41,651 nucleotides of DNA from the NCBI GenBank assembly GCA_036630325.1, contig CP142731.1, positions 1,240,001 through 1,281,651 on the forward strand. Reading direction: 5' to 3'. The notes under the pieces are model-generated. The model saw only the letters and a program-made list of their open reading frames with translations, was not told the DNA's origin and made no database searches. The DNA is from Vairimorpha necatrix (Eukaryota). Shown piece after piece: positions 1 through 39,409 of the stretch. Both the position numbers and the translations under genes were made by a program. The stretch's first letter is position 1; every line of letters begins with the position of its first letter.

Positions 1-1
1 A

Positions 2-2458: not shown

Positions 2459-2466
2459 GAATTTTT

Positions 2467-3114
2467 CATGTGCGAAAATCTTTTACTTCGTCTTACCATC
2501 CTCAATGTAATGGTACAGTTGAAAGAACCAATCAATCGCTGGTAGCTAAACTGGCCAAAATAACTAATGAAAGATGGAAAGAATGGGACGAATATTTAGA
2601 ACTAGCACTATATGCTTATCGTATTTCTCCAAGGAAGAAAACGGGATTTTCACCATTTGAATTATTGTATGGACGTAAGCCACAAGAATGGGATCAGACT
2701 AACCAAGAGATAGTACCCATGGAACCTAATCTATTGATATTTGAAAGATTAAACCAAACTCGAGAAATAATGCTTCAAGCAGAGAGAGAAGCACGGGAAA
2801 GAGAAATGGGAAATGTGAAAGAACAGGCTTTTAAAGTAGGGGATATAGTACTGAGGAGAAAACCTCCAATCAATATAAAAAATAAACTGGACAGTAAATT
2901 TGAAGGACTTTACACTATAACTAAGATAGGAAAAAGGGGTGCGTATGAAATAACTAGTCCAAATAATGTTGTTTTCTCGGTGAATCAGAAAGATTTAAAA
3001 AAAATGGATTTTGAAAAGGAAACTTGGGAGCCGATAAGGAAGGGGGGAGTGTCAAGGGACAGATCTCCAGTGGTCCTAAGATTGCCCTGGAGACCAGAGA
3101 ATACCATACTATAG
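2467..3114 (+). pseudogene. pol: Gypsy pol 3' segment (integrase core end and C-terminal domain)
   Basis: HVRKSFTSSYHPQCNGTVERTN, TGFSPFELLYGR and GPY/F-like FEGLYTI. Continues the 2..1333 frame exactly once Merlin and one TSD copy are removed. The stop codon lies in the 3' LTR. Confidence 0.93.
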
Positions 3115-3275
3115 GTATTCTTCTTCTTCTCTCCAATTATGTTTTGGAGGGAAATACTTTATTTTCCCTCCCACAAACATAAAAGAAAATCATACCCAGA
3201 AGGGTATGAAGAAGTTAAATAAAACATTAAGTAAAACTAACTCTTCTCGGACTGCTGGGCAACCAGTAGTCCACA
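3050..3275 (+). repeat. 3' LTR of element A (226 bp)
   Basis: Starts TGTCAAG immediately after the PPT and ends AGTCCACA. Aligns end to end with the solo LTR at 17701-17932. Confidence 0.92.
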
Positions 3276-5953: not shown

Positions 5954-5991
5954 TGTGGGATTTAAAACCCTCAATAAATAAATGGTTTACA
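5954..5991 (+). repeat. 5' LTR of element B (38 bp)
   Basis: TGTGGGATTTAAAACCCTCAATAAATAAATGGTTTACA directly followed by the PBS. Confidence 0.85.
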
Positions 5992-7151
5992 TGGCGAACA
6001 CAAGCGAAAACGGGGTAACAAGTGAGACCCGCGTTCAAGAGAACAGAAAAATTTTCAAAGAAGCTAATAGAGTAGAAGCGATTATCAGAATTTAGGAAGA
6101 AGTAAATGAAATGACACTGAAGCAGGCGATAAAACAATTAATTATTAAACTTTATGATTTTATTATTGATATAAATATAATCAGTATGACAAATTGGACG
6201 ATATTATTGAAGAAATTGGAAAATTAGTTGTTGAAGAGGAAGAGAATGAGAACAAGGAAAAGATAAGGAGGAGAGAACTAGAAGATATGGTAGAGGTCAT
6301 GAAAGAAAAATTTTGAAGAGAGATTAAAGGAGAATTGCCCAGGAAAGTAGCAGTGCATGGAAGACATTCTTATTATAAAAGATGAGAAGAAAAATATTGT
6401 TTTGTATGTGGTAAAATGGGACACATAGCTAAGAAGTTTTCATAACGTAAAGGAAATGAAAAAGATCAAGTTAATAAAGAAAATAAAAATTTGGACTTTT
6501 TGCATGCTAAAAGTGAAAATCAATGTAAAAGAAGTAAAAGTAATTTGACTATAGAAGAATTAGAAAATAGATTGTGGTGCGAGCTGCCTTCCTGGCCGCT
6601 CGGCTTGTTTAAATAATTTGCTTTTGTATAATATTTGTTAACTTTAGTTCTTTTAATCACTCGGTGAAGGGCTAGAAATTCATCCTTTTATTTTTATTTT
6701 TAATAAATGTCAAGCATATCATTAATTGGGGGGAAAGCCGGTCTCTTGTACAGCTTTCCATATTCTGGCCATATTCACTAGAATAGACATTTTCTTATTC
6801 GTCATTTGTTTGTTGACGAAGACGTATTTGTTTACGTGTATGACTCGGCCGTAATTGAGATATGACAGTCGAGGGATTCAAATATTAGAGTCTCACTGGG
6901 CCTGTAATAGGTACAGGAAGGATGTCGTGTGACATAGATATCCCGAGGTATTTAAAATAAGACCAGATGAAAAGATAAAATACTTAACAGGAGAAAATGT
7001 CTAATCTAGACAAAATTAAGGGGAGAAAATAGTGAGAAAAGGGCAAGTTGTTCCCAGAGCCTTAAATCAAAGTTTGTTATGTATTGGAAGATTTGAGAAA
7101 AAGAAGGATTATTAGGAAGTCGAAATATATGCGGCGAAACCCTATTAGGGC
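5982..7151 (+). pseudogene. Element B gag and RT N-terminus remnant (split by solo LTR 6573-6934)
   Basis: MVYMANT start, zinc knuckle remnant CFVCGKMGHIAKK near 6398, EELENR|YPEVF across the solo LTR, RRNPIRA at the element C junction. Many stops. Confidence 0.75.
6573..6934. mobile_element. Solo LTR (362 bp) inserted in element B
   Basis: TGTGG...TGACA termini with 5-bp TSD TAGAT (6568-6572 and 6935-6939). Removal restores the host frame ENRYPEVF. Confidence 0.88.
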
Positions 7152-7238
7152 TGTTGATATTTTTATATTTTTATATTTTTATTACCCCAATTTTTAAGAT
7201 GAGTAAGGAAGTGGAGGAGAAGAATCTCATAAATAAAA
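7152..7238 (+). repeat. 5' LTR of element C (87 bp, TG...AA)
   Basis: Identical to 10520-10606. Contains T-rich repeats, CCCC, the gag ATG (7199) and AATAAA. Confidence 0.92.
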
Positions 7239-10200
7239 TGGTGGAGAATATGAAAACAAAGCCAGTTGAAACTACCATCAAAAAGGAAAATTTGATGAGT
7301 GAATGTAGAAGGTTAGAAAATATGACCTTCTTCAGAGAAATGTGCGATGAGAGGAAAATCGAATATTTGATTGGAAGAGCTGACTACTTTATAGTAGATT
7401 GGCACCATGAGTTGATGGACACTAAAAGGAGGTGTTCGTTGGATTACGAAAAATGGAAAGAGTTGGCTAGAACCGAATTTGAAAAGAAAAGGCTTACTAT
7501 AGGGGAGTTATATCGCATGGTACAACAAGATGAAGAAACTATACCAACGTTTATAGAAAGAGTTAGAGATTCAGCCAGAGAGTACAAACTTGCAAAAAAG
7601 GAAATCATTGATATAATTACAGCTGGACTTAAAACAGGAATGGGCGATGTAAAAAGATTTTTATTGGCAAATAGTGATATTACAGATGAAAATCTAGAGA
7701 CAATCAAGAAATTGGAAAGTGAGTGTACAGCTGAATTACACCGAATTAATGATTTAAAATTGATGATTGAAAAAATTGATACTCTTAAATTTCAGGGGAA
7801 GAAAACAGTTAAATGTTACAACTGTAATAGCTTAGGCCATTATGCTAGAGATTGTCGAAAGCCAAAGAGAAGTGAAAATCTTAGGAGAAACATTAATGAA
7901 ATTACTGAAGAACTTAGAGATTTATTAAATAAAGAAAATTCAGTTTACATTTGTGGAGAGAAGGTTCCAGTATTGTTTGATACAGGTGCAAATTATAATT
8001 TTATAAGTAGTGCTAGTGTAGCAAGATTCAACCTTTTAACACATAATAACACAAGGAAATTAAGATTTTGGACATGTTTGGAAGAATCATTTGTGATAAA
8101 AAGACATGTTATATTAAATTATACATATAAAGGACATTTATATAGATCAAAGTTTTATATATTGCCAAAAGTACGAACTGAAAAAATCCTATTTGGTAGA
8201 GAAACATTAATTAGACTTAATAATATTGAGAAACTGAGTTATACATGTGAAATCAAAACACCTGAAGGCTCAAAAGTGATCGAAAAGATATATAATTTAC
8301 CAAAGAAATTGGAAGCAGAAATTGAAATTGCTATTAATAAATTATTAGAAAAGGGATATATACAAAACTCAAAATCAACGTGGGTTAGTAATTTGAGACC
8401 CGTGATAAAGCCAGATGGCACTGTAAGGGTTACAACCAATTTAATAGCACTTAATAGGTTGGTAGAACAGGATAATTATTCTTTACCAAGAATAGATGAA
8501 ATCCTTTGTAATTTAAGAGACATGACAGTATTTTCTAAATTGGATTTGAAGGATGGATTTTTTCAAATTCCTTTGGCACCGAAAGATAGATATAAAACGG
8601 CATTCAGATATAAACATAAATTATATGAGTGGAAAGTAATGCCACAGGGGTTTAAGAATGCTCCAGCAATATTTCAACGAAAAATGGATAAAGTTTTGAG
8701 AGATGAAATTGGTAAAAGTTGTTTCTGCTACGTAGATGATATTCTAATATTTGGAAAAACTGCAAAAGAGCACGACGAATCATATAATAGAATTCGAAAA
8801 CTTTTACTAGAAAATAATCTCAAAATCAATGAGGAAAAGTGTGTATTTAGACAATCCGAAGTTCTATTCCTGGGATACAAAATTAAACACAACATCATTA
8901 TTCCGCTCATAGATAAGATGCAAGCTATTGAGGATTTAAAACCACCTAAGGACAAAAAACAGATTCAAGAATTTTTAGGTGCCATAAACTATTATAGAAA
9001 ATTCATTAAAAACTGTTCAATTGTATGTGGTCCTTTGTATGAATTATTGAAAAATAAGAAAGAATTCAAATGGACGAATATAGAAGAGAACGCTTTTAAA
9101 GAAGTTAAAAGAATTTTTATTAATACGGTAGGACTATTTCAGCCAGATTGGTCAAAAGAATTTAAACTAGAGACCGACGCTTCAAATGAAGGTATAGCTG
9201 CAATACTCTCGCAAAATTTTGATGGAGATGAAAAACCAATTGCATTTGCATCGAGAAGGTTATTAGAACATGAGATTAAATATAGTATCAGCGAAAAGGA
9301 ATGTCTGGCCATGTTATGGGCAATGGAACACTTTCGATATTTTTTATACGGTACACATTTTGAAATTATCACAGATCATAAAGCGTTAGAAGCATTAAAT
9401 AAGGGTCAAATTAAGTCTCTGAGAATACAAAGATGGCTAGATAGAATGTCATTGTTTAATTTTAGAATTAGATATAGACGAGGTAAAGAAATTCCTCACG
9501 TGGATTGCCTAAGTCGAAATTCTGGATTGGCAACAAACGACAAGAGATTAAATTTACACGAAGGATCGATAAATCAATGTGAAGAAATGGACGAAAAGAA
9601 AATGCTTCAGATGATTCGCGAAATTCATAATGAGTTACTTCACCGTGGGATACAATCAGTAAAATATGAGATGTATAAAAGAGGTATTAATATAAAAAAT
9701 TCACAAAAATTGATTAGAAAAATTATAGATTCGTGTGAAACATGCAACGAGTACAATTCTAAAAAATCTAAACAATACATATTTGTTACCTCGTATGCAA
9801 AGGGAGAAAAAATTGCTATAGATATAATAGGTCCAATAAACACACAATACATTATAACTGGGATTGATTATTTTACGAGAAAAGGATTTGCTAAAGTGAT
9901 AAATAAGAGAAAAGATGAAAATGTAGTTAACTTTCTAAAAGAAATAAGTTCATCTATGTCTTTGAAGACATTGATCCTGGATCAATCGAAAGAAAATCTC
10001 AGTAGTAAGGTAAAAATGTTTTGCCAAGCAAATAAAATAGAATTACATTATACCACACCTTTCCATCACCAGTCAAATGGGCGTGTAGAAAGGTTTAATC
10101 GTACTTTACAAGATTTAATTTATAAAAATAAAAAGGAAAAATTACTTACTGAAAAGGTTAACAGAGGAATAGAGATATACAATAATAGCTATCATTCGGC

Positions 10201-10510
10201 TACGAGGATGACGCCAAATGAAGCTTTCTCGTTAGAAAATACGGATGAATTAAAAAATGCACAAATTAAGAATATTGTTGCATATAATACAGCCCAAATG
10301 AGGAAACCAAAAGAAATTAAATTAAATATGGGCGATATAGTAATTATCAAAGAAGAAGGAATAATAAAGAAGGGACAACCTAGATTTAAATTAAGGGGTA
10401 AAATTCATAAATGTTTAGAGGGTAATACGTACATGATAGACACCGGTAAAAGAATGTTTAAAAGGCATATATCTCAACTCAAACTTGTCATTGATGACCC
10501 CATCCTTTAA
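7199..10510 (+). CDS. Gag-Pol polyprotein (Gag with CCHC knuckle, aspartic protease, RT, RNase H, integrase), 1103 aa from the first ATG
   Basis: CYNCNSLGHYARDC, LFDTGA, YVDD, ETDAS...ITDH, H-H-C-C, AIDIIG/ILDQS/VERFN. The frame is uninterrupted; first ATG at 7199 follows a CCCC motif. Confidence 0.95.
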   Translation: MSKEVEEKNLINKMVENMKTKPVETTIKKENLMSECRRLENMTFFREMCDERKIEYLIGRADYFIVDWHHELMDTKRRCSLDYEKWKELARTEFEKKRLTIGELYRMVQQDEETIPTFIERVRDSAREYKLAKKEIIDIITAGLKTGMGDVKRFLLANSDITDENLETIKKLESECTAELHRINDLKLMIEKIDTLKFQGKKTVKCYNCNSLGHYARDCRKPKRSENLRRNINEITEELRDLLNKENSVYICGEKVPVLFDTGANYNFISSASVARFNLLTHNNTRKLRFWTCLEESFVIKRHVILNYTYKGHLYRSKFYILPKVRTEKILFGRETLIRLNNIEKLSYTCEIKTPEGSKVIEKIYNLPKKLEAEIEIAINKLLEKGYIQNSKSTWVSNLRPVIKPDGTVRVTTNLIALNRLVEQDNYSLPRIDEILCNLRDMTVFSKLDLKDGFFQIPLAPKDRYKTAFRYKHKLYEWKVMPQGFKNAPAIFQRKMDKVLRDEIGKSCFCYVDDILIFGKTAKEHDESYNRIRKLLLENNLKINEEKCVFRQSEVLFLGYKIKHNIIIPLIDKMQAIEDLKPPKDKKQIQEFLGAINYYRKFIKNCSIVCGPLYELLKNKKEFKWTNIEENAFKEVKRIFINTVGLFQPDWSKEFKLETDASNEGIAAILSQNFDGDEKPIAFASRRLLEHEIKYSISEKECLAMLWAMEHFRYFLYGTHFEIITDHKALEALNKGQIKSLRIQRWLDRMSLFNFRIRYRRGKEIPHVDCLSRNSGLATNDKRLNLHEGSINQCEEMDEKKMLQMIREIHNELLHRGIQSVKYEMYKRGINIKNSQKLIRKIIDSCETCNEYNSKKSKQYIFVTSYAKGEKIAIDIIGPINTQYIITGIDYFTRKGFAKVINKRKDENVVNFLKEISSSMSLKTLILDQSKENLSSKVKMFCQANKIELHYTTPFHHQSNGRVERFNRTLQDLIYKNKKEKLLTEKVNRGIEIYNNSYHSATRMTPNEAFSLENTDELKNAQIKNIVAYNTAQMRKPKEIKLNMGDIVIIKEEGIIKKGQPRFKLRGKIHKCLEGNTYMIDTGKRMFKRHISQLKLVIDDPIL

Positions 10511-10519
10511 GCGGAGGGA

Positions 10520-10606
10520 TGTTGATATTTTTATATTTTTATATTTTTATTACCCCAATTTTTAAGATGAGTAAGGAAGTGGAGGAGAAGAATCTCATAA
10601 ATAAAA
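10520..10606 (+). repeat. 3' LTR of element C (87 bp)
   Basis: Follows the PPT, is identical to the 5' LTR and is followed by TSD AGGGC. Confidence 0.92.
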
Positions 10607-10611
10607 AGGGC

Positions 10612-13156
10612 TATTAAAAAACCTAATGGAGCTGTTTGAATTGTCAGTAATTTTAAAGGATTGAATGATTTGGTCGAAAGAACCCATATGAGTTGCCAAG
10701 AATCAGAGATATTATAATTGCGAAACGGGCTCTAGAGTTTTTACAGTGCTTGATATTAAAGAAGCATTTTATCATATTGAAATTGAAGAAGCGCAAAGAT
10801 TTAAAATTACGTTTGAATTTGAAGGAAATGTATATGAGTGGAATAGCATGGTCATGGGATATAAAAATGCACCTCGGATTATGCAGAGGACAATGAATAA
10901 CATTTTAAACAACTTGAGAAGAAAAGGAGTAGAAGTTTATATGGATGACATTGTTGTTTATTCGAAGACGTATAAAAAACATGATGAGATATTAAATGAA
11001 GTGTTGCGGAAATTATAACATCATGGCCGAAAAGTAAATGTAAGTAAGGTACGTGTGATGTACATGACTACATCACATGGACAGCTGTCAAACCCATCAG
11101 CTGTCAAACATCTTAAACGGCATGTCATGGCGAGTCACACAAACAAATAAACAAACGAAAGTTGGATGGTCGTTACTACATTCGTAAGTACGCCAATGTT
11201 TGTGTTTAGTGTTGACAACAATTAACAAATTAAAAATAAACTATACAAGAAAGTCTGTCGGTGAAGGGTATGGAATATCAGAGGAATAGAAACACCATCA
11301 ATAAAGTTATTAATATTAACAATATTTTAGAAAGCTATATAAATATAGCAAAGTCCCGTCTATACAGGACAGTACGATATAGGCTGGATAAAGTTAAATT
11401 ATTAGGAGTTGGTGTGAATGGTGATTGTAGAAAACCATCTGAAATTAAGCGCAATGAAGCATTAAAATTTAAAAGTTCGACGAATGTTAGTGAGTTTCGT
11501 AGAATTTTTAATATTGACAGGATGGTTCAGAAAATTTATAGGGAATTATGCTATTATGACAATAGCACTTGCAGACGCGTTAAAGAAAGATAAGGAATGG
11601 GATTGGATCGATGAAATGGAATGTGAATTTAACGCATTGAAAGATGAATTGAGGAATACAATTGAGTTAAAAATTCCAGTTTATACAAAATTATTTTTTT
11701 TAAAAAATGATGCTTCAGACACGGAATTGAGAATATTGTTACAAACAAATAAGGAAGGTAAGTGTGGTTCTATTCAGTAGGCTTCTAAAAAGCTGAAACC
11801 AGCAGAAAGAAAATATGGTATTTCAGAAAAAGAAATGTTAGCAGTGTTTTGGGGTATAAAAAAGTATGAATATGATTTAAGAGGTAAAAAATTTTAATTA
11901 CAGACAGACCTTAAAGCTTTAGAGGCAATGAGATCTAAAGAATGCTATTATAATAATAGAATAAATCGGTGGATCGAGAAAATTTTTAGTGTTCGACTTT
12001 ACAGTTAAATATAATAGAGGTGAAACAATGACAGATGTAGATGCTTTAAGCAGACCTTTCAGGATGACGCAAATAAAGAAAAGAAAACAGAGATTATAAA
12101 AAACAAATTTTAAGAAAAGAAGTGAAACATGTTTAAGAAGTAAATGGAGAAAAGATATGGAAGTAAAATCAGGATAAACAGCGATAGTTCCAGATACGGA
12201 AATTAGAGATAAGTTTATTAAGGAAAAACATTTGGAGCTTAATCACAGAGGAATAAAAGGTACTTATTATGAGTTGAAAAAGAAATGGTATTGGTTAGGT
12301 ATGATGAAAACATAAGTAACATATTGAGAGAATGCTAAACGTGCAGAAGTATTAACAGAAAGAACAGAGAGGGTGGATTTATTGCCCCCATGAAAACAGG
12401 AGAGAAGTTAGGTCTTGATATCATGAAAATAGGAAATCCAAAATGCAATGTTCTGCAGGAATTGACTTTATCCGAGATATGCGTATAGTGCAGTATTGGA
12501 TAGAAGAACTAGTAGTAATGTTATAAAGACAATGGAAAACTGGTTTAAAGAAGAGTGTGTACCAGAAGAGATAATTAGTGACAATGCAAAAGAGTTTGTT
12601 GGCGAAGAATTTTGACGATGGTGTTGTGATAATGAGATATTACATCATAAGGTAAGTGTTGAAAGTTATGGTAGTAGTGAAAGGATATTAAGATTAATAA
12701 GAACTTTATGAGAAGCTGTACTTAATCAAAGTGGAGGCAATTTAAAAGAAAAAGTGAAGAACGCAATCGATGTATATAACAGAAGGTATTACAGTTGAAT
12801 AAAATGTAGCCCAATCGAAGCAAAAGGTGAAATGTCTAGTTGCGGAAAGTTAAGAACGCTAAATGAGAAAGATGGTGAGTATTCAAAGAAGTGTGAGAAG
12901 AGATGAAGAGAACAATTTAAACTGGGAGATAAGGTTTTTTTAGCTAAGAGAGAAATTTTAGCAAGTCGAATGAAAGATGATAAAGGAAGATACGTAAATG
13001 AGTAGTAATAATCGAAATTGTAGAATGATTCGTACTTAATAAAATACAATGATGGTATGATAAGAAAGCAGAGACATTTTGATTTCAAAGTCTGTGCTAA
13101 GGTGAAAAAGGTTCGTTAGGTTGATGTTAATGAGACAAATCGTCTTGAGAAGGGAA
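10612..13156 (+). pseudogene. pol: Element B pol remnant (RT, RNase H, integrase) with stops and frameshifts, split by solo LTR 11054-11371
   Basis: Fragments LDIKEAFYHIEI, VYMDD, GWFRKFI, NDASD, HRGIKGTYY...WYW and ISDNAKEF are colinear with the element D protein. Confidence 0.88.
11054..11371. mobile_element. Solo LTR (318 bp) inserted in element B RT
   Basis: TGTGA...GGACA termini with TSD GTACG (11049-11053 and 11372-11376). Removal restores KVRYRLDKVKLLGV. Confidence 0.88.
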
Positions 13157-13195
13157 TGTGGGATTTTTAACCCCCTAATAAATAAATGGTATACA
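13157..13195 (+). repeat. 3' LTR of element B (39 bp)
   Basis: TGTGGGATTTTTAACCCCCTAATAAATAAATGGTATACA after a purine tract; a diverged copy of 5954-5991. Confidence 0.85.
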
Positions 13196-17700: not shown

Positions 17701-17932
17701 TGTCAAGTGACAGATCTCCAGTGGTCCTAAGATTACCCTGGAGACAAGAGAATACTATTCTATAAGTATTCTCCTCCTTTACCAAACTATGTTTATGGAG
17801 GGAAAATGTACAATACTTTCCCGCCTATAAATATAAAAGAAAATCATACCCTTGGGGGTATGAAGATGAAGAACAATAAAAATTATAGTTTAAAACATTC
17901 TTCTCGGACTGATGGGAAACCATCAGTCCACA
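17701..17932 (+). mobile_element. Solo LTR of the element A family (232 bp)
   Basis: Homologous to 3050-3275, TG...CA termini, TSD ACTAA (17696-17700 and 17933-17937). Confidence 0.93.
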
Positions 17933-18483
17933 ACTAACATAACTAATATTGTTTTAAAATATTCAAAGACAATTAAAAAATTAAAAATATATATCTGATA
18001 AATTTTGATTTAAGGTTTTGAATCAGATACACGTGTTTTGATTTTTACAAAATTTTTTTTTAATCTGAAATCTCCTTAAAAACATGAAAAGTAGTTAGAT
18101 TTAAATTTTACAAATTCTTATAAAACAATTTATGGGTTATCAGCATTCTCAATGTCCATATTTTTTTATCTATAGAATTGTAAACAACAGTATTGGGGTT
18201 TCTAGTATATTATGCATACTTGAACCTTCTGTTTACCTTATCGTATGACCTAAATTGTCTTTTAAGCGTTTGTTCTATTTAAAGTTATGGTCATTAATCA
18301 TAACGCCATATATATACTCGATATTGATTAATCCCTGCAATCTGCGAAGACTAAATATGTAACTTCCTAACATTATATTTTTGCCTGATAAAGTTATCGC
18401 CAATATAATATCGTGATTTTTATACTATTCATAATCATATATATCTGTTTTTTATATTAGGGTTATCAATATTTTTTATTAAA

Positions 18484-18521
18484 TGTAGGGTTTAGAACCC
18501 TTAATAAATAAATGGTTAACA
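18484..18521 (+). repeat. 5' LTR of element D (38 bp)
   Basis: TGTAGGGTTTAGAACCCTTAATAAATAAATGGTTAACA. Confidence 0.93.
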
Positions 18522-21500
18522 TGGCGAACACAAGAATGAACAGGGAAACAAGAGAGTCCCGTAGTCAAGAGGCTAGAACATTAGAGAAAGAGGCAATTAG
18601 GATAGATAAGAGACTAAAGTTAATATTGAAAGTTGAGTGGAAAGATGTTATGGATTTGGCATCTGCGAACTTGCAGGATTATATTTTTGAAAATTTTTGT
18701 GACGGAAGGAGCAGTTGGGAGGAAATTTATAAAGGCTTACAAAAAGGAGCAGAATTTGAGAGAGAGTCAGAAGAAAGACAAGAAATGATTAAAGAGATTA
18801 TGGATAAAGTGTTGAAAGAGTTTAGGGAAGAAAGAAAAGAAAATCTTAGGATGTATAGGAAAAGAAGAGAAATCAGAGAAACTACAAAATGTTTTATATG
18901 TAAGAAAGAAGGGCATTACGCTAGAGAATGTCATGAAAGTGTAGCTGGTAGAGAAAAATATAAAATTAAAAAGGAACAAGTTTTACAGAAAGAACCAATT
19001 ATCAACAATGAAGGGAAAAGATGTAAAACAGTAAATAAGTTAGAAAATTTAATTGAAAAGTATCCGGAAGTTTTTAAAGAATCAGAAGAAAAGATAAAAT
19101 ATCTCACAGGAGAGAAGTGTCCAATAAATACTAAGCAAGGTGAAAAGGTTGTGAAAAGAGGGCAGAATGTGCCATACTACCTTAGGGTGAAATTTGAGGA
19201 GTACTTGAATAAGTTGGAAAATAGAGGGGTTATAAGACGTTCCAAAAGTGAGTGGAGGAGTCCAATAAGAGCACTTGAAAAACCAAATGGGGACGTAAGA
19301 TTGGTAAGCAATTTGATGGCGTTAAACGATTTGGTTGACAAGGACCCGTACTCACTACCGTTAATTAAGGATATTATGAGAGCCACACAGGGGTCAAAAG
19401 TATTTACGGTTATCGACTTAAAAGAAGGGTTTTATCATATTGAGATTGAGGAGCACCATAAGCACAAAACAGCATTTGAAGTGAATGGTCGAGTATACGA
19501 ATGGAATAGTATGGTTATGGGGTTTAAGAATTCGCCTCATATAATGCAGAGAGTAATGAACAGAGTTTTAGATGAATTCAGAGGTAAAGGCGTGGAAGTA
19601 TATATGGATGATATAGTTATTCATGGTAAAGACGTAAGAGTGCATGACGAGTTACTAGAGAGGGTAATTAAAAAGTTTAAAGAGTGTGGGTTGAGAATAA
19701 ACCAAACAAAGATACAATACAAAAAAGATGAGGTGATGTTGCTGGGAGTAACAATTAATGGGGAGGTCATGGGACCGAATGAGATTAAAAAGCAGGAGAC
19801 ATTGGAATATAGAAAACCTGAGAATGTTAGAGAGTTAAGAAGATTAATAGGACTAACTGGTTGGTTTAGAGACTTTATTCCCAACTATGCGTATAGAACA
19901 GTAAGGCTTACTGAGGCTTTAAAGAAAGATGTTAAGTGGAATTGGACGGAGGATATGGAAAGAGCTTTTGAGGATATGAAGCAAGGCTTGAGAGATATGA
20001 AAAAGTTGAAGATTCCGGACGGAAAAAAGCTATTTAGAGTAAGAACCGATGCGTGTGATACGGGGATCGGAGCAATTCTATTACAAGAAAATAAAGAGGG
20101 TGAGTGGATTCCGATACAATGGGCATCGAAAATGTTGACTCCTACCGAGCGAAGATATACGATAAGTGAGAAGGAGATGTTGGCGGTGTTTTTTGGAATA
20201 AAGAAGTTTGAAAGTGATTTGAGAGGAAGGAAATTTCATTTGATGACGGATCATAAAGCATTAGCAGAGATCAGAAATAAGCCATACTTCAATAATAACA
20301 GAATAAACAGATGGGTAGAACAGATACAAGAGTTTGACTTTACAATAGAGTATGTGAAAGGGGAGTTGATGACAGATGCAGATGAGTTAAGTAGGCAGTA
20401 TGATCAGGTAGAAGTTTCGGATGAACAAAAAGAAAAGGACAACAAGAGAAAAGAAGTGATCGAAAAACAAATTTTGGGGAAAAAGCAGAAACATATTAAA
20501 GAAAAGGACGGTAAACAGTATTGGGAATTTTCCACAGGTGAGGTGAAAGAGATATTGAGCCTAGATAGTAGAGAACATGAAATAACAAGAGTACATGAGG
20601 AGTTAAACCATAGAGGTGTCAAAGGCACTTATTATAACATTAAACAAAGATGGTATTGGCCTGGTATGAAAGATCATATTAATAAGGTAATTAAGAATTG
20701 TGAAATATGTGGGATTAACAATAGGAAAAACACAGGAGGATGTGATTTCGTAGTAACTAGAAAGAAATTGGAGAAAGTGGCGTTGGATTTAATGGACATA
20801 GGTGGAGAGAATAGGTATGTGTTACTGGGTATTGATTACTTTACTAGAAGGTTGTGGGGTTCGAATTTGAGATGTAAAGAGAGTAGTGAAGTTTTAGAGG
20901 TATTACAAAAGTGGATAAGGGAAGATGGATTTCCAGAGGAATATGTGACAGACAACGGAAAAGAGTTTGTAAGTAATAGATTTAAAGAATGGTGTAGTAT
21001 TAATGATATTAAACATAGGAAAGTGGGCTTAGAAGCTCATAGGAGTAATGGTAGAATCGAGAGATGCATCAGAACTATAAGAGAGACATTGATAAAGCAA
21101 AATGATGGGAATATTTCTGAAAAGATAGAAAGAGCAATCGAAGGATATAATAATACACTACATACAGCAATAAAATGTACGCCGATGGAAGCGTGGAGAG
21201 ATCAAACTGCTGAAGTTATAATTGAAAATGATGAAAATGGAAAATATGCTGGTCGGTTCAAGAGAAGACACAGAGAGACATTTACAGTAGGCCAAGAGGT
21301 AAGAATCGCTAGGAGAGAAAATTTAGGTACACGTGCGAAAACAGACAAGGGAAGATTCACGGGTCGCGGAAGGATCGTAGCTATAAGTGAAAATGATTCA
21401 TATATTGTGAGACTACTGGATGGTAAAATTGTTAAAAAGAGGCATTATGATTTGAAAGAGATAAGGAAGAGTTGTTTAGAAGATGGAGAGACTACCCGTC

Positions 21501-21523
21501 TGGAGGGGGGATGTAGGGTTTAG
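18512..21523 (+). CDS. Compact Gag-Pol polyprotein (short Gag with CCHC knuckle, RT, RNase H, integrase; no recognisable protease), 1003 aa
   Basis: CFICKKEGHYAREC, VYMDD, RTDAC...MTDH, H-H-C-C, ALDLMD/VTDNG/IERC. No D[TS]G motif between the knuckle and RT. Confidence 0.93.
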   Translation: MVNMANTRMNRETRESRSQEARTLEKEAIRIDKRLKLILKVEWKDVMDLASANLQDYIFENFCDGRSSWEEIYKGLQKGAEFERESEERQEMIKEIMDKVLKEFREERKENLRMYRKRREIRETTKCFICKKEGHYARECHESVAGREKYKIKKEQVLQKEPIINNEGKRCKTVNKLENLIEKYPEVFKESEEKIKYLTGEKCPINTKQGEKVVKRGQNVPYYLRVKFEEYLNKLENRGVIRRSKSEWRSPIRALEKPNGDVRLVSNLMALNDLVDKDPYSLPLIKDIMRATQGSKVFTVIDLKEGFYHIEIEEHHKHKTAFEVNGRVYEWNSMVMGFKNSPHIMQRVMNRVLDEFRGKGVEVYMDDIVIHGKDVRVHDELLERVIKKFKECGLRINQTKIQYKKDEVMLLGVTINGEVMGPNEIKKQETLEYRKPENVRELRRLIGLTGWFRDFIPNYAYRTVRLTEALKKDVKWNWTEDMERAFEDMKQGLRDMKKLKIPDGKKLFRVRTDACDTGIGAILLQENKEGEWIPIQWASKMLTPTERRYTISEKEMLAVFFGIKKFESDLRGRKFHLMTDHKALAEIRNKPYFNNNRINRWVEQIQEFDFTIEYVKGELMTDADELSRQYDQVEVSDEQKEKDNKRKEVIEKQILGKKQKHIKEKDGKQYWEFSTGEVKEILSLDSREHEITRVHEELNHRGVKGTYYNIKQRWYWPGMKDHINKVIKNCEICGINNRKNTGGCDFVVTRKKLEKVALDLMDIGGENRYVLLGIDYFTRRLWGSNLRCKESSEVLEVLQKWIREDGFPEEYVTDNGKEFVSNRFKEWCSINDIKHRKVGLEAHRSNGRIERCIRTIRETLIKQNDGNISEKIERAIEGYNNTLHTAIKCTPMEAWRDQTAEVIIENDENGKYAGRFKRRHRETFTVGQEVRIARRENLGTRAKTDKGRFTGRGRIVAISENDSYIVRLLDGKIVKKRHYDLKEIRKSCLEDGETTRLEGGCRV

Positions 21524-21549
21524 AACCCTTAATAAATAAATGGTTAACA
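21512..21549 (+). repeat. 3' LTR of element D (38 bp)
   Basis: Identical to 18484-18521, directly after the PPT; contains the ORF stop codon. Confidence 0.93.
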
Positions 21550-21842
21550 TATAATAAAGGATATATACTCGTTTTTGCCGTGTAAAATGTATATTATTTT
21601 TTAGTATAACATGTATATATATTAGATTTGTATATTCGGATCAAAGAAAATCTTATATAATTTTATTTTATATAAGAAAGCATAAAACTAATATTGTAAA
21701 TTATTCTATTATTTAGTTAAATCGCTTAATAATTTTCAATCTGACTAATTTGAAATTTTTCTTTATGTTTAGAAAGAAAACAAAAATAAAAGAAAGTTAA
21801 ACTATAATTGGTTTTCTTAAAGGTTAACAAATGTTTAAATAA

Positions 21843-21914
21843 GTGTGCTTGGCAGAATGGATGCACCTTGATTTGGGATATCGAAGGTCCAAGGTTCGAT
21901 TCCCAGTGGCAATA
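21843..21914 (+). other. tRNA-derived sequence (SINE head or tRNA pseudogene)
   Basis: Pol III A-box TGGCAGAATGG (21850-21860) and B-box GGTTCGATTCC (21893-21903) at tRNA spacing. Acceptor and T stems pair poorly. Confidence 0.7.
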
Positions 21915-22689
21915 AAATTAAAATTAATATTCACTGTGTAGAAATAGATGCTGTTGGGCATACAGACGTCTCTAAATATATTATTTCAAAATTGATAGAC
22001 TAAACAAATATTATGAAAATAATTCTTGAAATGAATTGATCATTAGTTTCTAAAATATATTTACAATTCGAATTTTAATACATATAATTTGTCATTCTGT
22101 GTTTCAAAATACCATAGCTGTATATTCTATAGGGATCTAAAAGCCAATTATGGCACTCTTGATGTAAAAATTTATGAAGTTTGTTTTTATACAAACAAGA
22201 TATAGTATAAGATGGAGATCTGTTAAATTATTTCATTAGTGACAATGAAGTTTAATAAGTTTGCTTTTAGTGTTCTTTGTAAGAGAAAGAGCCATCTGGG
22301 ATCTAGATGATTTATTTTTATATAGACATTATATTAATCTGATAAATCTATACAGAGGTTTTAAAATCTTCATTTTAATATATTTATTGATTTAATGATG
22401 CGATTAGAGGCTTGTATATAAAAATATTCTCCTTAAATCTAAATGGTTACGTCGGAGATAGTGAAGCGCAAGTATTCGGTAATAGTTAAGTGAGTAGAAA
22501 TACCCTATTTTAATTGGATTGTTAACTCAATTTCTTTTGAGTTCATGTATAAGATTATATCTTCCCTTCTACTCGCAAAGAATACGAAATTTTAAATACA
22601 ATAAAGGCTATAAGTCAAAATTATGTTTTTTGAACTTTTAAATTTTTAATTATTCAAGGATGACAAGTATATATATTCAAACACCAAGA

Positions 22690-23045
22690 ATAAGAATAAA
22701 ATCATGAAAAAATAAATTATCTAAAATGTCATAATTTTGATTTTCTTTTTCATTGATGACAAGAATTTATACACATTTATAAAAAATAAGAAGTTGATAA
22801 AAATCATGAAAAAATATTTGTCTAACTTGCAATAATTTCTAATTTTAGAGTTTTGAAATTTTCATTTTTAAAATGAGGAAAATTTTATATACATATATAT
22901 ATACAATAAGACAGAAAAGAAAATTATGAAAAAATAATTAGTCTAAAATGCAATAATTTCTAATTTTAGAGATTTAAATTTTAGATTTTCCAAACTTGAC
23001 AATATATATACAAATGTAATAAGAAAGAGAAGAAAATCATGATAA
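22690..23045. repeat. Degenerate tandem repeat, 3-4 units of about 100-120 bp
   Basis: Recurrent AAAATCATGAAAAAATA...TCTAAAATG/CAATAATTTCTAATTTTAGAG near 22698, 22800 and 22920, with a partial unit near 23033. Confidence 0.7.
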
Positions 23046-28753: not shown

Positions 28754-29267
28754 TCATATATATAAAAGAATTTTATTTAATTTTTTACCCCTCTTTTTTG
28801 TGGTTTTAAAATTTCTAAACTATGTATTTTGATCTTATTAAGTTATAAAAATAGTTTTTTTAGATTTAATGTTTCAATTTGATAATTGTAGATGCGTATA
28901 CTATATGTTAATACTTTTTTGTTTTTTATAAATTTTTTGTAAAACTCAGTTCCAAAATATCGTCAGAATCGTTTTTTAGAATTTATTTAACCCTTCCACA
29001 AAAATTCATAAAACAATTAACCATTTCGGATTTCGAATGATAAGTGTCAAATTTTGAACTAAAAAACATTTAGAAGTTATAGCATTGAATTTTATATAAT
29101 AATTTGAATCGAATTCTGTATTTAAGTCTGCCAATAATTTAATATTTACTGTTGTTAAGAATTGTATTTTCTCCTTTTCTTATTCCAACCCAAAATGGTA
29201 AATCAAAAGAAAAATGCAATGCGCACACACATTAATCCCGTTTTCAAAACGGGAAAGCATACGCTAG
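28754..29267 (+). mobile_element. Non-autonomous Helitron, copy 1 (about 514 bp)
   Basis: 5' TC after A; 3' hairpin CCCGTTTTCAAAACGGG followed 10 nt later by CTAG; no TSD. The 5' boundary is slightly ambiguous because of the (ATC)n run. Confidence 0.82.
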
Positions 29268-29786
29268 TCATATATATAAAAGAATTTTATTTAATTTTTT
29301 ACCCCTCTTTTTTGTGAATTTGAAATTTCTAAACGATACATTTTGAGCCTTTTACGTTAATATAATATCATATATAGATTTAATGTTTCAATTTGATAAT
29401 TATAGATGCGTATACTATATGTTAATACTTTTCGTTTTTAATAAAGTTTTTTGTAAAACTCAGTTCCAAAATATCGTCAGAATCGTTTTTTAGAATTTAT
29501 TTAACCCTTCCACGAAAAATTGCAAATTAATTTATTAATAAAGATTTTGAATATAAATGTCAAAACTTGAGCTTAGAAAATCCCAAAATTATCTCATTAT
29601 AATTATTAAATATTTTAGCTCAACTTTACTCCTTATATGTTACTAAAAAGTATTTTTTAAAATCATGTTTCCCCTTTCTAAATTCATTCATCCCAAAATG
29701 GAAACTTAACAAAATTAAAAGGGGAAATACATATTAAAAAACTAAACATGTAAATCCCGTTTTTAAAACGGGAAAGCATACGCTAG
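29268..29786 (+). mobile_element. Non-autonomous Helitron, copy 2 (519 bp)
   Basis: Starts TCATATATATAAAAGAA like copy 1. Ends CCCGTTTTTAAAACGGGAAAGCATACGCTAG followed by T. Confidence 0.85.
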
Positions 29787-30042: not shown

Positions 30043-33000
30043 GAAGCCGTATCGTCAGCGCAGGTCTCGTGCTTCATGACATCTGATTTAATTTTATAAT
30101 TGATATTTCGAAATTTTTTTTTGCACAATTTAGTACATTTTTTTAGAGGTTGCCAACGTAAGTATCTGTATAATTAATATTATAAGAAATTTAGATTTAT
30201 TTGTCTTTTCGTATGAGTACGTAAGTATATAATTTGCTGTTCAAAAAATAATTATGGAACGCATCATGTGCAGAATCGACATAAAAATAAAAAAATTGAA
30301 AGCAAGTTGTCATAGCCTGATGCTATGTCAAGAATTTTTGATATTTAATTTTTATCAAAAATTTCATTAACCATTTTTTACAAAAAATATTTAAATAAAA
30401 ATTTAAAAAGAAGGGTAAGACGAAATGAGGAGAAATGAAATTAATCAAGAGAGGCCTAGACCAGGACAAGGGTCAAGATATAATGAATTTAACAATTTAA
30501 AAAATAAAAGTATTTTAAGTATATTAGAGAACTATTTTAAAGACGGGTGTTATCCCCGTGGGCATGACACAAGTTAAACATATTAAATCGGCTTTGGACA
30601 AATACGTTAATTAAACGATATATTTATTTCTTTTTGCAAGATAAAAACATATTTTTCAAAACAAGTAAATTAGATTCTTTCAAAAAGAAATGAAAACACA
30701 ATCATTGAGTGATTTAATTACAAGAAATGTCTGACACTATATATTAATCATTTAAGACATATAATTTAGTCTAACAATATATTTGTTGAATAAATTAGGA
30801 CATATTTATATACAAGAAATAAGATTATAAATCTATCTAAAATAATTTAGGTATATGCATTAAAGTATTTAAATAAATGTTATAAAACCAAAACTTGATA
30901 AACTAAATACAAAGGTTTTATGGAAGTGTGTAATAACGATTACATCATAAGGACAGTTTTCAAAGTTTACTCTGTCAAATATTCACCAACAACGTTCCAA
31001 CACATCAATAATACAACAAAAAATGAAAAATTTACAATATGTGTTTATCCATGCAAAATAATTAACCTTTAACTTACGTGGCTAAAAAATGATTACAATA
31101 AAAATAAAATTTAAAAAAAAAGTTTGTGTATGAAGGGCAAGGAATATCTATGAAGCAAGTACATAATCATAAAGTTATTAATAGTAAAATATTTTTAGTC
31201 TTCAAAGTTTTATCTATGAAGAACAGAGAAATAAAGAAAAAATAAAAAGGAGCATATTGGTTATAAGAAAAGATATTTTTAAAACGAACTCTACAATCTA
31301 TCTAAATTAACAACGTAGGTAATAACAAGATAATTTAAATTTGATCTTTCGCTTTTTCATTTGGTATAAATACGAAAGCAAACAAATAAAATTTCTTTTA
31401 CGATCAATATAGCACTGTTTTAGAAGTGATACAAATAATATTCATTTATTATAACTAGATAGTAAAGGTATTATAAAGAAAAGATATACATATGATTCAT
31501 ACATATTGCTTTGCAAGATAAATACATAAGAATTCAAAATAAAGATATACGATCAAGATATTATATGAAATATAATTTTCTTTTATATAAAAATCTACGC
31601 CAAAATAAACAAAAATAAATCCCAATATTGCATATAGTATAATTTAAATACAATTAACACAAGCAATGAAGTTTTTTTTTAATTATCTAGAACATATCAG
31701 ACGATTTTATAAATGAAAATTATACTAAAAAATCAACTATATTATATTTATATATGTCTAATAAGTACACGTTATTCTGTATAATAATTTCTAATGGTAA
31801 AAAAACGAAAACAAATATTATATAAAAATTTTAAACGAATTTCGATCAACCTCGTATATTACATTTTTTTGGTTTATAGAATTCTAAAGAAGTTTCAGTT
31901 ATTAAACATTGTAGGCTTTTGAAATCGAAATTGGTAAAAAAACAAATGTCAAAAATATATAATTTGTTCTTTACAATCATACTGACCACCCAAAATTAGA
32001 AACTATGACCAAAAAATTCTAAAAAATAAAATCATTAATACTTTTATCATATTTATAAAAATATTTCTTTTATTATTAATTGAAATAAAAAAATAAAACA
32101 ATTCAAATATCTATCGGTTAAATATTTAAGAATTGCTCTTTCGTTATATATAATACCTTCTAAATCCGTAAAGTATAATATTTTTATATAATAATTTGAT
32201 CAAAATTTAAGTTTGAAAATCGAAATATTATAAAAAGAGGTCATTTACGAAAGAAAAAAAATTCCAAATTCAATCAACAATTATCGTAAAATTATATTTT
32301 CATTGAAAAAAATAATGTTTTAATGTATAATTAGAAGAATTAAAGAAAATTATATTAAATTTACAATATAAAATAGGACTTATTCATTGTAAAATCGTTC
32401 AGTAACGGTAAAAAGTATTTTACTTAGAATCAACATTTATGTTATTGATTTTAAAAAATCCTAGGGAAAACCTACTTAAATATATTTTCCATATTATAAT
32501 ATAATAAGAAATAATAAGTAAATTTTCAATTATGAATATATATAAAAAATAACACATACAATTCAATACAAGGTTATTTTAAATAAACGTTTTTGAGATT
32601 TTGAAAAAGGCGTCGCAAATTCCAAAAAAATAAAACCAAAATACGGGGGAATAGAAATGCATATAAATCTAATACAGTTAATAACAAAAATAGAATTAAT
32701 TATGAAATGCTATATTTATTAAAGAATCTTTTATACCATAGTTACACGCAAACGGAATATATTTCAAAATTTTTATATTTAAGCAGAAAATAATTTTAAT
32801 TAATATAAAGAGTAATAACATAAAATAAACATGATTAACACTAGCTAAATTTAAATTTAAAACCCTCACATAAAACATGTTAATACAAGATAAATATTTC
32901 TCAATTATAATACTATATAATATTTCACCTGGACGTTTTCAAGATTATTTACAAAAAAATAAAAAAAAGTCGAAAAGATAGAATTGGATATATTAAATAT

Positions 33001-36000: not shown

Positions 36001-36241
36001 TCTGTATATATGCATTAATACGTCATTCTAGATCTTAGAAATTGGTATAATTTCCCTAAAAAATTATATTTTATATAATACAAATATTTCAAGTAAAAAA
36101 TATGTTAAAACGCAAGAATGACCTTTTTTACAGAAAAATATATATTACAAAATATAGAAAAAATTTCATACTTTTACAATATATTATTACATAAATTTAT
36201 TCGCAGTTTTACACCAAAAATACTTTAACTTTTAATTATAA

Positions 36242-39200
36242 TGTTAAAGTTGAACCTCTTGATAAATAAATGTATAACATGGCGAACACAAAAGACGCTA
36301 TGCTAACAGGTGAGACCTGTGTTTTAGAGAACAGAAAATTACTAAAAGAAGATAAGCAAGTGAGACAATCATCATAATGCAGAAAGATGTGGAAGCTATG
36401 ACAACGAAAAGGCGAAACAAGTAAGTACTGAACTTCAAAATTTTATTGTTGATAAAAATTTAATCAGTATAATAAATTGGAATGATATTATTAATGAAAT
36501 TGATAAATTAATGTTGAAGAGAAAGAGAATAAGAACAAGAAAAAAATAAGGAGCAGAGGACTAGAAGGTATGGTAGAGGGTATGAAATAAAATTAAGAGA
36601 GAGATTAAAGGAGATCTGACTTGACTATAGCAGTGCCAGCAAGACACTTTCAATATAAAAGACGAGAAACCAAAAAACAAGTTTTATATGTAAGAGCGTT
36701 GGACATATAGTTAGAAGTTGTATAGAGCGTAAAGGAAGAAAGGAAGAGAATAACGAAAATAAAAAAGTTTAATATTTTAGTATTCGTGATAATAGTAAAA
36801 TGAAAATATTTAAAGGAAATGATTTTAAAATAAGACTACCAGTGGAGGGCGAAAAGAGAACTCTAGATACAGTTTTTATGTAGAAAATACAACCAAAGAT
36901 AAAAGGGGAAAAAATATTAATAAATTACAAGAATTGAGAGGAAAATTTCTAGAAGTATTAGGAAATGACGAAGAGTAAATAAAATACTTAACAAGAGAAA
37001 AATGTTCTATTAAAACAAAACAAGGAGTGAAAGTAGTTTAAAAAAGACTAAATATTTTTTATAATCTCGAGAAAAGTTGAAAAAGCATATTAATTGATTA
37101 GAAAGTAGAGGTTTTTTTAGAAGGACAAAGAGCGAATGGAGAAGCCCAATAAAGCCCATAGAAAAACTAAATGGTGAAGTACAATTGAGAAGCAATTTGA
37201 TGGATTTAAACGAACTGGTTTAAAAAGATCCGTATGAATTGCCATTGATTAGAGACATTATTAGGGCAACGGAGGTTCTAAAGTATTTATGGTTTTAGAC
37301 CTAAAGTTAGGATTCTATCATATAAAATTGAGAAAGCTCAAAAACATAAGACAGCTTTTGAGATAATTGTTCGAGTTTACACATGGAATAGCATTGTATT
37401 GGGATTTAAAAATGCATCCCATATTATGAAAAGAGTGATGAACGGAGTTTTAGATAAGTTTAGAGGTAAGAGCGTTGAGGTGTACATGGATGATATTATT
37501 ATTCATGCAAGAGATAGTAATATACACGAAATTTTTTTAAAACAAAAAATTCGAAAACTTAACGAATGTGGATTAAAAGAAACTTAAAAAAAATACAATA
37601 TAAAGGAGAAATAAAACTACTTGGAATATCAATTAACGGAGAAGACATTACACCTAACAAAATTAAAAAGCAAGAGACATTAGAATACAGAAGGCCTAAC
37701 AATATATAAGATCTTAGAAGATTTGAGGGACGTGCAGGCTGGTTAAGAGATTTTATTCCCCATTATGCTTATCGGTCAGCGCTTCTTACGGAAGCACTAA
37801 AAAAAGATGTTAAATGGTGATGGTCCGAAGATATGGAAAGAGCTCTTATGGATATCAAAGAGGGTTTAAAGGATGTGAAAAAATTAAAAATGGTAGATAG
37901 TAAAAAAATGTGTAGAGTAAGAACAGATGCATACGATACGGGAACTTGAGCCATACTATTGCAAGAAGACAAAGAAGGAAAGTGGAATCAGATACAATGG
38001 GCATCAAAAATGTTAACAGCAACAGAAAAAAGGTATATGATTAATGAAAAAGTGATGTTGGCAGTGTTATTTGGAATAAAGAAATTCGAATCCGATTTGA
38101 GGGAAGCAAATTTCATTAAATGAAAAATCATAAAGGACTGGCCGAGATTAGAAACAAACCGTTTCGCAAAAATAACAAAAATAATAGATGGATAAAAAAC
38201 ATACAAGAGTTCGATTTAACTATTGAATATGTAAAAGGAGAATGGATGACGGATGTAGATGCTCTTAGTAGACAATTTAAAAATAACAAAGTGAAAGAAA
38301 GCAGCGAAAGATAGAAACGGACTTAAAAACAGATGAAAGGGAAAGCAAAAAAGCGCATGGTTAAAAGAGAAGGTAAAAACTATTGGAAGTTTTCAACAGG
38401 AGAAATTAATAAATACAACTCAAAGAAATAAGTGAGAACGGAAATTCGTAGAGTTCATGAGGAATTAAATCATCGAGGAGTTAAGGGAACACATTATAAG
38501 ATTATACAAAGATGGTACTGGCCAGGTATGAAGGACCAGATAACCACATCGCTAAAAAATTGTTAAGTATGTAGCATTAATAACAGAAAAAAGATCGGGG
38601 GTGGCAATTTTTTTTGGCATTTAAGAAATTAGAAAAAGTAGCTTTAGACGTAATGGATATTGAGGAAAAAGAAAAATACGTGCTATTAGGGACTGACTCC
38701 TTTACGAGAAGAGTATGGGGCGCAAAGATGGAAAATAAGGGAAATGATGTTATTACGAAAATTTTAGGATAATGGATAAATGAAGATGGATGCCTAGATG
38801 AATATTTCGGATAACGGTAAGGAATTTGTCAGTCAGAAGTTTGTAACTTGGTGTAAAGAAAATGGAATAATGCAATGGAAAGTATATTTAGAAGCTCATA
38901 GGGTTAATTGGAGAATAGAACGATGTATTTGAACAATAAGGGAACCGATGATCAAAAAAAAAGAAGGAAACCCAGAGGAAAAACTAGAACAAGCTGCAAG
39001 AACCTATAATAACACTCTACACACAGCGATTAAATGTACACCAATGGAAGCATGGAAAGAACAAGGAAAAGAAGTCTTAATTGAAAACAATAAAAAGAAT
39101 GTGTATGCAAGTAAGTTTAAACAAAAGCATAGAGAAAAATTTGAAGTAGATCAGGCTGTGAGAATCGCAAGATAAAAAACTTGGGTAAATAGATGAAAAG

Positions 39201-39409
39201 TACAAAAGGAAGATTTACAAGTGTCGGTAAAATATTCGGAAAGTATAGAATGATTCTTATTTTGTAAGGACTGATAGCGGAAGATACATTAAGAAAGACA
39301 TTATGACCTAGAATTTTTAAAAATGATAAATTAGAAGCTTGTAACCTGAGACTACCCGTTTGAAGGAGAAATGTTAGGGTTGAACTTTCCTATAAAAAAA
39401 TGTATAACA
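36242..39409 (+). mobile_element. Degenerate miniature-LTR Ty3/Gypsy element 'E' (3168 bp)
   Basis: 38-bp LTRs 36242-36279 and 39372-39409 (30/38 identical) with TSD TATAA (36237-36241 and 39410-39414). PBS TGGCGAACAC at 36280; PPT GAAGGAGAAA. Confidence 0.92.
36270..39371 (+). pseudogene. Element E gag-pol remnant with many stops and frameshifts
   Basis: MYNMANT start; fragments MGFKNASHIM...VYMDD, IQEFDLTIEYVKGE and YNNTLHTAIKCTPMEAW closely match the element D protein. Confidence 0.9.

Follow-up and report, generated by a model that had tools for sequence, protein, structure and literature searches.

The Ty3 element of Saccharomyces cerevisiae is bounded by long terminal repeats (LTRs) that begin with TG and end with CA. 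It carries a tRNA-type primer-binding site (PBS) and a polypurine tract (PPT), encodes reverse transcriptase (RT), RNase H and integrase in that order, and is flanked by a 5-bp target-site duplication (TSD). The element is ~5.4 kb long; its LTRs measure ~340 bp, and it has a protease as well as separate frames for GAG3 and POL3. Much shorter LTRs do occur, for example in the Mag element of Bombyx mori (~77 bp) and in the SMART elements, which are non-coding and non-autonomous. Here we describe element D, a coding retrotransposon of the Ty3/gypsy type whose LTRs measure 38 bp, to our knowledge about half the length of the shortest LTR of any coding element. It lies in a 41,651-nucleotide stretch of Vairimorpha necatrix DNA (GenBank assembly GCA_036630325.1, contig CP142731.1, positions 1,240,001 to 1,281,651), which we refer to as the window and to which all coordinates below apply. 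Taken together with two diverged relatives in the window, elements B and E, we read D as a member of a Ty3/gypsy lineage of microsporidia in which compaction has reached its limit, with true 38-bp LTRs and no protease in D itself. We place the probability of this reading at roughly 0.8.

Several published systems provide a frame of reference. The Ty3/gypsy elements of microsporidia are described as encoding Gag and Pol in one polyprotein rather than in two open reading frames (ORFs) (PMC4202319), and nearly all of the elements reported from Nosema bombycis encode Gag, protease, RT, RNase H and integrase (PMC2474625). With respect to size, SMARTs have been termed the presumed smallest LTR retrotransposons, and the same account calls the 194-bp LTRs of the tomato element TARE1 'very short' (PMC3701649).

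Ends and polyprotein of element D

Element D occupies positions 18484..21549 on the + strand (3066 bp, ~3.07 kb) and is the intact example of its lineage. The 5′ LTR (18484..18521, 38 nt, TG...CA) is an exact copy of the 3′ LTR (21512..21549, 38 nt). Identity in fact extends over 40 nt (18483-18522 versus 21511-21550), one base beyond the LTR on each side: an A, which is the end of the PPT in one copy and left flank in the other, and a T, which is the start of the PBS in one copy and right flank in the other. By our estimate (~0.34^40 per position pair), such a repeat would lie far beyond chance expectation in an AT-rich window of 41.6 kb. Abutting the 5′ LTR is a TGG-initiated 13-mer, TGGCGAACACAAG (18522..18534), and a 12- to 13-mer of this kind is kept next to the LTR in B, D and E as a candidate tRNA-type PBS. 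Adjoining the 3′ LTR is a purine run, GGAGGGGGGA (21502..21511), which we take as the PPT and which has purine-rich counterparts in B, E and three relatives introduced below (L005, L003 and L008). Because the PBS abuts the left LTR and the PPT the right one, the two boundaries of the repeat are fixed independently of each other. The direct repeats thus have the TG...CA termini of a Ty3/gypsy element at a length far under the usual.

The coding capacity of D resides in a single ORF (18512..21523, + strand; protein P0001) of 1003 aa, which comprises a Gag-like helical region, a CCHC zinc knuckle, RT, RNase H and integrase and takes up 3012 of the element's 3066 nt (98%); no second ORF of 80 aa or more is present within D on either strand. 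The frame begins in the 5′ LTR and stops in the 3′ LTR. Its start codon is formed by LTR positions 29-31, and a second in-frame ATG spans the junction, being made of the LTR's final A and the TG of the PBS; the PBS itself overlaps the codons M-A-N-T. At the other end, LTR positions 1-12 encode C-R-V-stop. Only positions 13-28 of the LTR are never coding. Pfam searches located RVT_1 at residues 256-415 (4e-31), RT_RNaseH at 505-608 (3e-30), Integrase_H2C2 at 687-738 (3e-14) and rve at 763-836 (4e-10), which is the RT, RNase H, integrase order of Ty3/gypsy Pol. All 100 matches to the D polyprotein were Ty3/gypsy-type polyproteins. Among those with a named source, the closest come from Nosema granulosis (partial-length identities of 73% and 70%) and Vairimorpha necatrix (~48-51%), which makes the host a microsporidian of the Nosema/Vairimorpha type. 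In the phylogeny described below, D falls within a clade supported at 99-100 beside relatives that their sources name as microsporidian. The initial annotation had presented D as a Ty3/Gypsy element bounded by identical 38-bp TG...CA repeats whose two edges are set separately by a PBS and a PPT, and on all three counts our analysis upholds it.

The Gag-like portion of the polyprotein contains a C-X2-C-X4-H-X4-C motif (residues 127-140) of the nucleocapsid-knuckle type. Its score against Pfam zf-CCHC (17.8 bits) is under the cut-off of 20.8, and the four columns C127, C130, H135 and C140 are invariant or nearly so in an alignment of the relatives. A protease is missing. No Pfam protease family was detected in D at E≤0.01, nor in the linker between knuckle and RT at E≤1, and the distance from the knuckle to the RT-homologous region is ~52 aa in D as opposed to 123 aa in the protease-bearing element C (see below). 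None of the 40 relatives P0002-P0041 lists a protease family either; more distant matches do. In an AlphaFold model of residues 1-203 (pLDDT 83; 25 sequences in the alignment), everything but the zinc knuckle and some low-confidence coil is helical. One helix spans 56 residues, and there is no beta-rich domain, the only bridges being single-residue ones at the knuckle, with no beta strand past residue 133. Loss of the protease raises the question of how such a polyprotein is matured.

Repeat length in the wider lineage

The two relatives in the window share the architecture of D. Element B (5954..13195, + strand) is an old, degenerate copy that is split both by element C and by unrelated sequence at ~6042-6938. 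Its 5′ LTR (5954-5991, 38 nt) and 3′ LTR (13157-13195, 39 nt) are identical in 34 of 39 aligned columns, and its PBS (5992-6004) is the same 13-mer as that of D. Element E (36242..39409, + strand), also degenerate, has LTRs of 38 nt at both ends (36242-36279 and 39372-39409) that are identical in 32 of 39 columns, a PBS (36280-36292) that matches D's at 12 of 13 positions, and a TSD, TATAA (36237-36241 and 39410-39414). For random pairs of 5-mers set ~3 kb apart outside the elements of the window, the background rate of a match is 0.0041. When the ends of B, D and E are aligned, similarity begins at TG and ends at CA, bar AT-rich bases that resemble target sequence. At the DNA level B is 65-82% and E 69% identical to D. 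The three are therefore sub-lineages rather than copies of one narrow family, and the constancy of LTR length becomes more telling, having survived a long divergence. We observed in addition that the homology between B and D is interrupted between 6041 and 6939, where the intervening sequence is unrelated and G+C-richer; it may be another insertion or fragment.

Nested within B is element C (7152..10606, + strand), an intact member of the sister clade. Its LTRs (7152-7238 and 10520-10606) are identical over 87 nt and end in TG...AA rather than CA. The PBS, TGGTGGAG, adjoins the 5′ LTR at 7239, and the ORF (7199-10510, 1103 aa) has its start codon at LTR position 48 and includes a protease (RVP_2, 21.2 bits against a cut-off of 20.3). 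The element is flanked by a GC-rich and unambiguous 5-bp TSD, AGGGC (7147-7151 and 10607-10611), and removing C with one TSD copy in silico restores the reading frame of B.

A tree was used to place these relationships; its 36 rows comprise D and C, six locus translations, P0002, 19 other family matches and 8 distant matches, with the remaining matches left out. In it, the 20 rows of the D clade (SH-aLRT 99) form the sister group of a clade of C, L027 and P0040 (100), and the two together are supported at 100. Relatives from other samples allow the ends to be compared further. L005, on a contig binned in a bacterial metagenome-assembled genome (MAG), encodes a protein 67% identical to that of D; downstream of a conserved box and a purine tract it has a homologous 3′ LTR of 38 nt (TG...CA), beyond which the sequence is unrelated. 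A second MAG contains L007, with a 47-nt TG...CA segment at its 5′ end followed by the PBS TGGCAACACCGA, and L008, with the same segment (46 nt) at its 3′ end, between the box and purine tract on one side and unrelated sequence on the other; since two different copies display one end each, both boundaries of this LTR are fixed. L003 has an LTR equivalent of 30 nt, and L001 and L002 are rearranged copies with no usable ends. In the sister clade, L027 has LTRs of 58 nt, a PBS of the type found in C and an ORF reaching from one LTR into the other. More distant elements of the same MAG carry LTRs of 75 nt and ~176 nt and, in both cases, a protease. The LTR lengths encountered thus form a graded series of 38, 46-47, 58, 75, 87, 176 and 226 nt, the last of these belonging to family A, described below.

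The wider set of proteins has further features that bear on the lineage. Of the 41 proteins P0001-P0041, 25 start with M-A or M-G, either directly or after 3-7 residues; these starts are the junction ATG read in frame, often with an in-LTR ATG before it. Many relatives of ~1000 aa are found on contigs of 3.03-3.3 kb, which fits D-sized units although it is not decisive. Among viral contigs, no relative was found.

Judged from these aligned ends, the short LTR is a trait of the lineage and not the product of deletion, a view supported by relatives from other samples, whose LTRs are 38 and 46-47 nt long, and by the sister clade, with 58 and 87 nt. The initial annotation had argued for a family trait from the equal lengths in B (38/39 nt) and E (38/38 nt, TSD TATAA), both of which also match the PBS of D (13/13 and 12/13), and had pointed to the ends of further copies as the place to look; the homologous ends found there bear it out. 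The alternative, in which deletions in these copies cut LTRs of an ordinary size, hundreds of bases, down to 38-nt remnants, could draw on the presence of a family with normal LTRs in the same window. This family A (1-3275, + strand) is truncated at the start of the window, and its ORF is broken; it ends with a 226-nt LTR (3050-3275) after the PPT AAGGGGGGAG, and a 232-nt solo LTR (17701-17932) has a perfect TSD, ACTAA. The remnant explanation could also appeal to the imperfect TSDs of D and B. Against it, three copies that are ~30% apart in DNA keep identical boundaries, the PBS and PPT directly abut the repeats, the start and stop of the ORF use LTR bases, and the LTRs of relatives in further samples measure 38 and 46-47 nt. 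To these can be added the evidence from run X1 described next, in which both edges of the multi-copy depth fall inside the LTRs, as do the contig breaks. We consider deletion very improbable, and already largely refuted.

Depth over D was examined in run X1, a DNA run assembled as contigs, which may be the source sample of the assembly and hence not independent of it. Word depth in X1 is ~60-65 across D versus 2.6-6 in the left flank, and the two long contig pieces that cover D (records 3 and 5, with 4 and 5 letters that differ) have their ends inside the LTRs, at 18504 and 21540. Within D itself, the intact ORF and the identical LTRs are signs of activity. The right flank (21549-21900) is repetitive in X1 (depth 16-56), and one contig joins this flank to other sequence exactly at 21549. 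This suggests that the two flanks of D derive from different insertion sites, and would fit D being a recombinant between two copies, an event that would explain its missing duplication. A separate observation concerns the LTRs: the X1 depth bins that contain them (18448-18571 and 21424-21547) stand at ~107-113, giving by arithmetic a summed LTR depth of ~230-270, which is about four times the internal depth, not twice. The excess may stem from copies that are solo or fragmentary, from words that the LTR has in common with sub-families, or from overlapping contigs being summed.

The same flank could be taken to mean that the short repeats are an assembly artefact, or a duplication made by some mechanism other than LTR retrotransposition: D is without a TSD, and its repeat-like right flank is joined to other sequence at 21549 in X1. 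Yet the six LTR copies in the window, independent contigs of two other assemblies and the X1 contigs all agree, and the combination of TG...CA ends, PBS, PPT, DDE integrase and 5-bp TSDs (in E and C) is the signature of LTR integration. Of all the explanations that we considered, we find this one the hardest to credit.

Signals within the repeat and a possible replication cycle

If the 38-nt repeats of D, B and E are true LTRs, they must accommodate the signals for expression, and here the habits of microsporidian genes are informative. The CCC motif of Nosema ceranae is mostly found no more than 15 nt ahead of the start codon, with a peak at -10 to -3 (PMC2685015). Rapid amplification of cDNA ends in Encephalitozoon cuniculi is reported to give 5′ untranslated regions (UTRs) of <7 nt, with a CCC-like motif directly before the start; the same study describes use of AAUAAA, with some poly(A) sites only 16-17 nt past the stop codon (PMC2803860). 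The LTR of D contains CCC at positions 15-17 and two overlapping AATAAA motifs at 20-25 and 24-29. More generally, CCC stands 14-22 nt ahead of the first in-frame ATG in the LTRs of D, B, L005, C and L027, and AATAAA is found near the 3′ end of the LTR in the same five elements. With CCC, AATAAA, a start codon and a stop codon all inside it, the D LTR looks like a minimal microsporidian intergenic spacer. A Pol element of Anncaliia is reported to have a microsporidian regulation signal in its putative promoter (PMC4202319), which agrees in kind with such an interpretation of the D LTR.

A replication cycle can be proposed on this basis. The 5′ copy of the LTR would supply CCC (15-17) and the start codon (29-31, or the ATG at the LTR/PBS junction), and the 3′ copy would supply the stop codon (positions 10-12) and AAUAAA (20-29). 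Given that microsporidian 5′ UTRs are only a few nt long, transcription would start at about LTR position 20-30, and polyadenylation would occur at or just past the LTR end. The predicted U3 is then ~20-28 nt and R plus U5 ~10-17 nt, all inside the 38-nt LTR. A tRNA would prime at the PBS to give a very short minus-strand strong-stop DNA, which would be transferred on ≤17 nt of homology; the plus strand would be primed at the PPT, with the second transfer taking place on the PBS. The DDE integrase would then insert the element and create a 5-bp duplication. The polyprotein would have to act uncleaved, or else be cut by a protease provided in trans, for example from co-resident C-like elements.

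A further component may be the conserved box GAGACTACCCGTCT (21488..21501, + strand), which lies directly 5′ of the PPT and has the potential to form a small hairpin (AGAC/GTCT). The box is conserved as DNA in D, E, L005, L003 and L008, and B retains the AGAC/GTCT stem. In L003 it lies behind the stop codon, and the relatives read it in two frames (C-termini ETTRL or MRLPS); its persistence when non-coding or in another frame therefore indicates a constraint on the nucleic acid. The PBS of Ty3 is bipartite, and the box may help to define the PPT, form a small hairpin, or pair with the primer tRNA in the manner of that bipartite site.

At its fullest extent, the proposal is that D is a minimal autonomous LTR retrotransposon, with an R-U5 of ~10-17 nt or less, which would give the shortest strong-stop DNA and transfer homology of any retroelement, a Gag-Pol that functions uncleaved, and a hairpin box that makes up for so small an R by acting as a bridge for the RNA ends or the primer tRNA, a role that the bipartite PBS plays in Ty3. 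We put this forward tentatively, as a possible model that is rather more doubtful than the short LTRs themselves. In a different scenario the LTRs are true but the element is not self-sufficient: it would be transcribed by read-through from outside, such that the whole 38 nt would serve as R, perhaps with a foreign protease or other proteins, making it a semi-autonomous parasite. The absence of a protease in D, the co-residence of its protease-bearing relative C and the small size of the U3 that D would otherwise have (only ~20-28 nt) are all compatible with this, as are the transcription overrun and multi-gene transcripts reported from E. cuniculi (PMC2803860). However, the CCC and ATG of the LTR are arranged as in a typical microsporidian gene start, the lineage has retained intact ORFs of ~1000 aa in many samples, and copies are found in unrelated flanks, each of which would require its own external promoter. 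On this evidence we regard parasitism as unlikely.

A number of observations weigh against our reading of B, D and E as a compacted lineage with true 38-bp LTRs, and they are best considered together. As regards the signals, the LTRs of E have no CCC motif, and the CCC of D, at 14 nt ahead of the in-LTR ATG, falls just outside the -10 to -3 peak of N. ceranae. As regards integration, a TSD of 4-6 bp is present in E (TATAA) and C (AGGGC) and imperfect in D and B: D has TTAAA on the left and TATAA on the right despite its young appearance, and B has TTATA and TAAAA. TSDs are likewise absent at the complete MAG-contig elements L027, L037 and L031, which may reflect assembly through repeats. Outside the window, the analysis recovered no complete D-clade copy whose two LTRs share a contig: L007 and L008 come from separate contigs, and the 5′ end of L005 is missing. 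With respect to the primer, no tRNA was found in the window. The complement of the PBS has four exact matches in the contaminated MAGs G001 and G002, none of the four in a tRNA. A T-loop-anchored pattern gave 8 matches in these MAGs as against 20 for a reversed control, which is the level of chance, and the 116 tRNAs recovered from the two MAGs by an Rfam scan lie mostly in bacterial-type arrays. Finally, a Foldseek comparison of the Gag region model with the PDB returned no match at E≤0.001 and thus no capsid-like fold, the weak top rows being retroviral nucleocapsid knuckles. Self-priming of the kind used by Tf1 was also considered as a substitute for a tRNA primer and rejected, as no stretch of the LTR complementary to the PBS could be seen by eye.

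Chromosomal setting and relation to known elements

The window terminates in an irregular telomeric array of mixed TAGG/TTAGG units (39572-41651, 2.08 kb) and therefore represents a chromosome end; the 3′ LTR of E ends ~160 nt before this array. The sequence is AT-rich throughout (G+C 18-36% in 2-kb steps). A, B, C, D and E are all on the + strand and read toward the telomere. The retroelement insertions amount to at most four independent events because C is nested in B, and the shared orientation is weak evidence of oriented or telomere-directed insertion. At 22668-23018 and 28754-29552, the non-coding subtelomere contains short tandem-like AT-rich modules (47-89 nt, 72-74% alike) together with a 285-nt direct repeat (85% alike, 514 nt apart). 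A candidate solo 38-nt LTR at 32855-32879 was rejected because it is without TG...CA ends. The sequence at 32850-32880 is 80% like part of the B LTR (an AAATTT-like run, CCC and ATG), with no ORF of ≥60 aa from its ATG, and looks like a bare microsporidian start-site motif.

Searches of the main texts of the open literature (with supplements, Repbase and Dfam outside their reach) turned up neither an account of how the LTRs and PBSs of microsporidian elements are built nor a coding element whose LTRs measure ~40 bp. The default minimum LTR length of LTRharvest is 100, as listed in Table 1 of its description (PMC2253517). Pipelines run with this default would therefore skip the D lineage as well as its relatives with LTRs of 46-87 nt, just as had been anticipated for LTR finders in general. 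Elements that are skipped would be counted only as 'Pol-like genes', thereby biasing both transposable element and gene counts in microsporidian genomes.

By its Pol order, its ends, its PPT and its phylogeny, D is a genuine Ty3/gypsy element; it lacks the protease, and its LTR is far beyond the usual range. It shares with Ty3 the order of the domains, the TG...CA termini and a PPT next to the 3′ LTR, and differs in being 3.07 kb long with 38-bp LTRs, one frame and no protease. It also resembles the Ty3/gypsy elements of microsporidia, including the Nbr elements of N. bombycis and the microsporidia-specific groups (PMC4202319), with which it has in common the host phylum and the single Gag-Pol polyprotein, but a protease is present in nearly all N. 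bombycis elements and absent from the D clade. Like D, the Mag, SMART and TARE1 elements have LTRs well under the usual size. The tiny LTR of D fits the extreme compaction of gene-expression signals in microsporidia, and would imply a much lower bound on what an LTR has to contain, with ~38 nt providing both integrase ends, a promoter-proximal signal, a poly(A) signal and the repeat used in strand transfer. A parallel for such a transfer comes from retroviruses with a short R, such as mouse mammary tumour virus, in which R is ~15 nt; they show that 10-20 nt of homology can suffice for the minus-strand jump, as the D lineage would require. Unlike D, whose entire LTR is 38 nt, these viruses have a long U3 and U5. 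With D, the amount of homology needed for minus-strand transfer becomes testable in a natural element.

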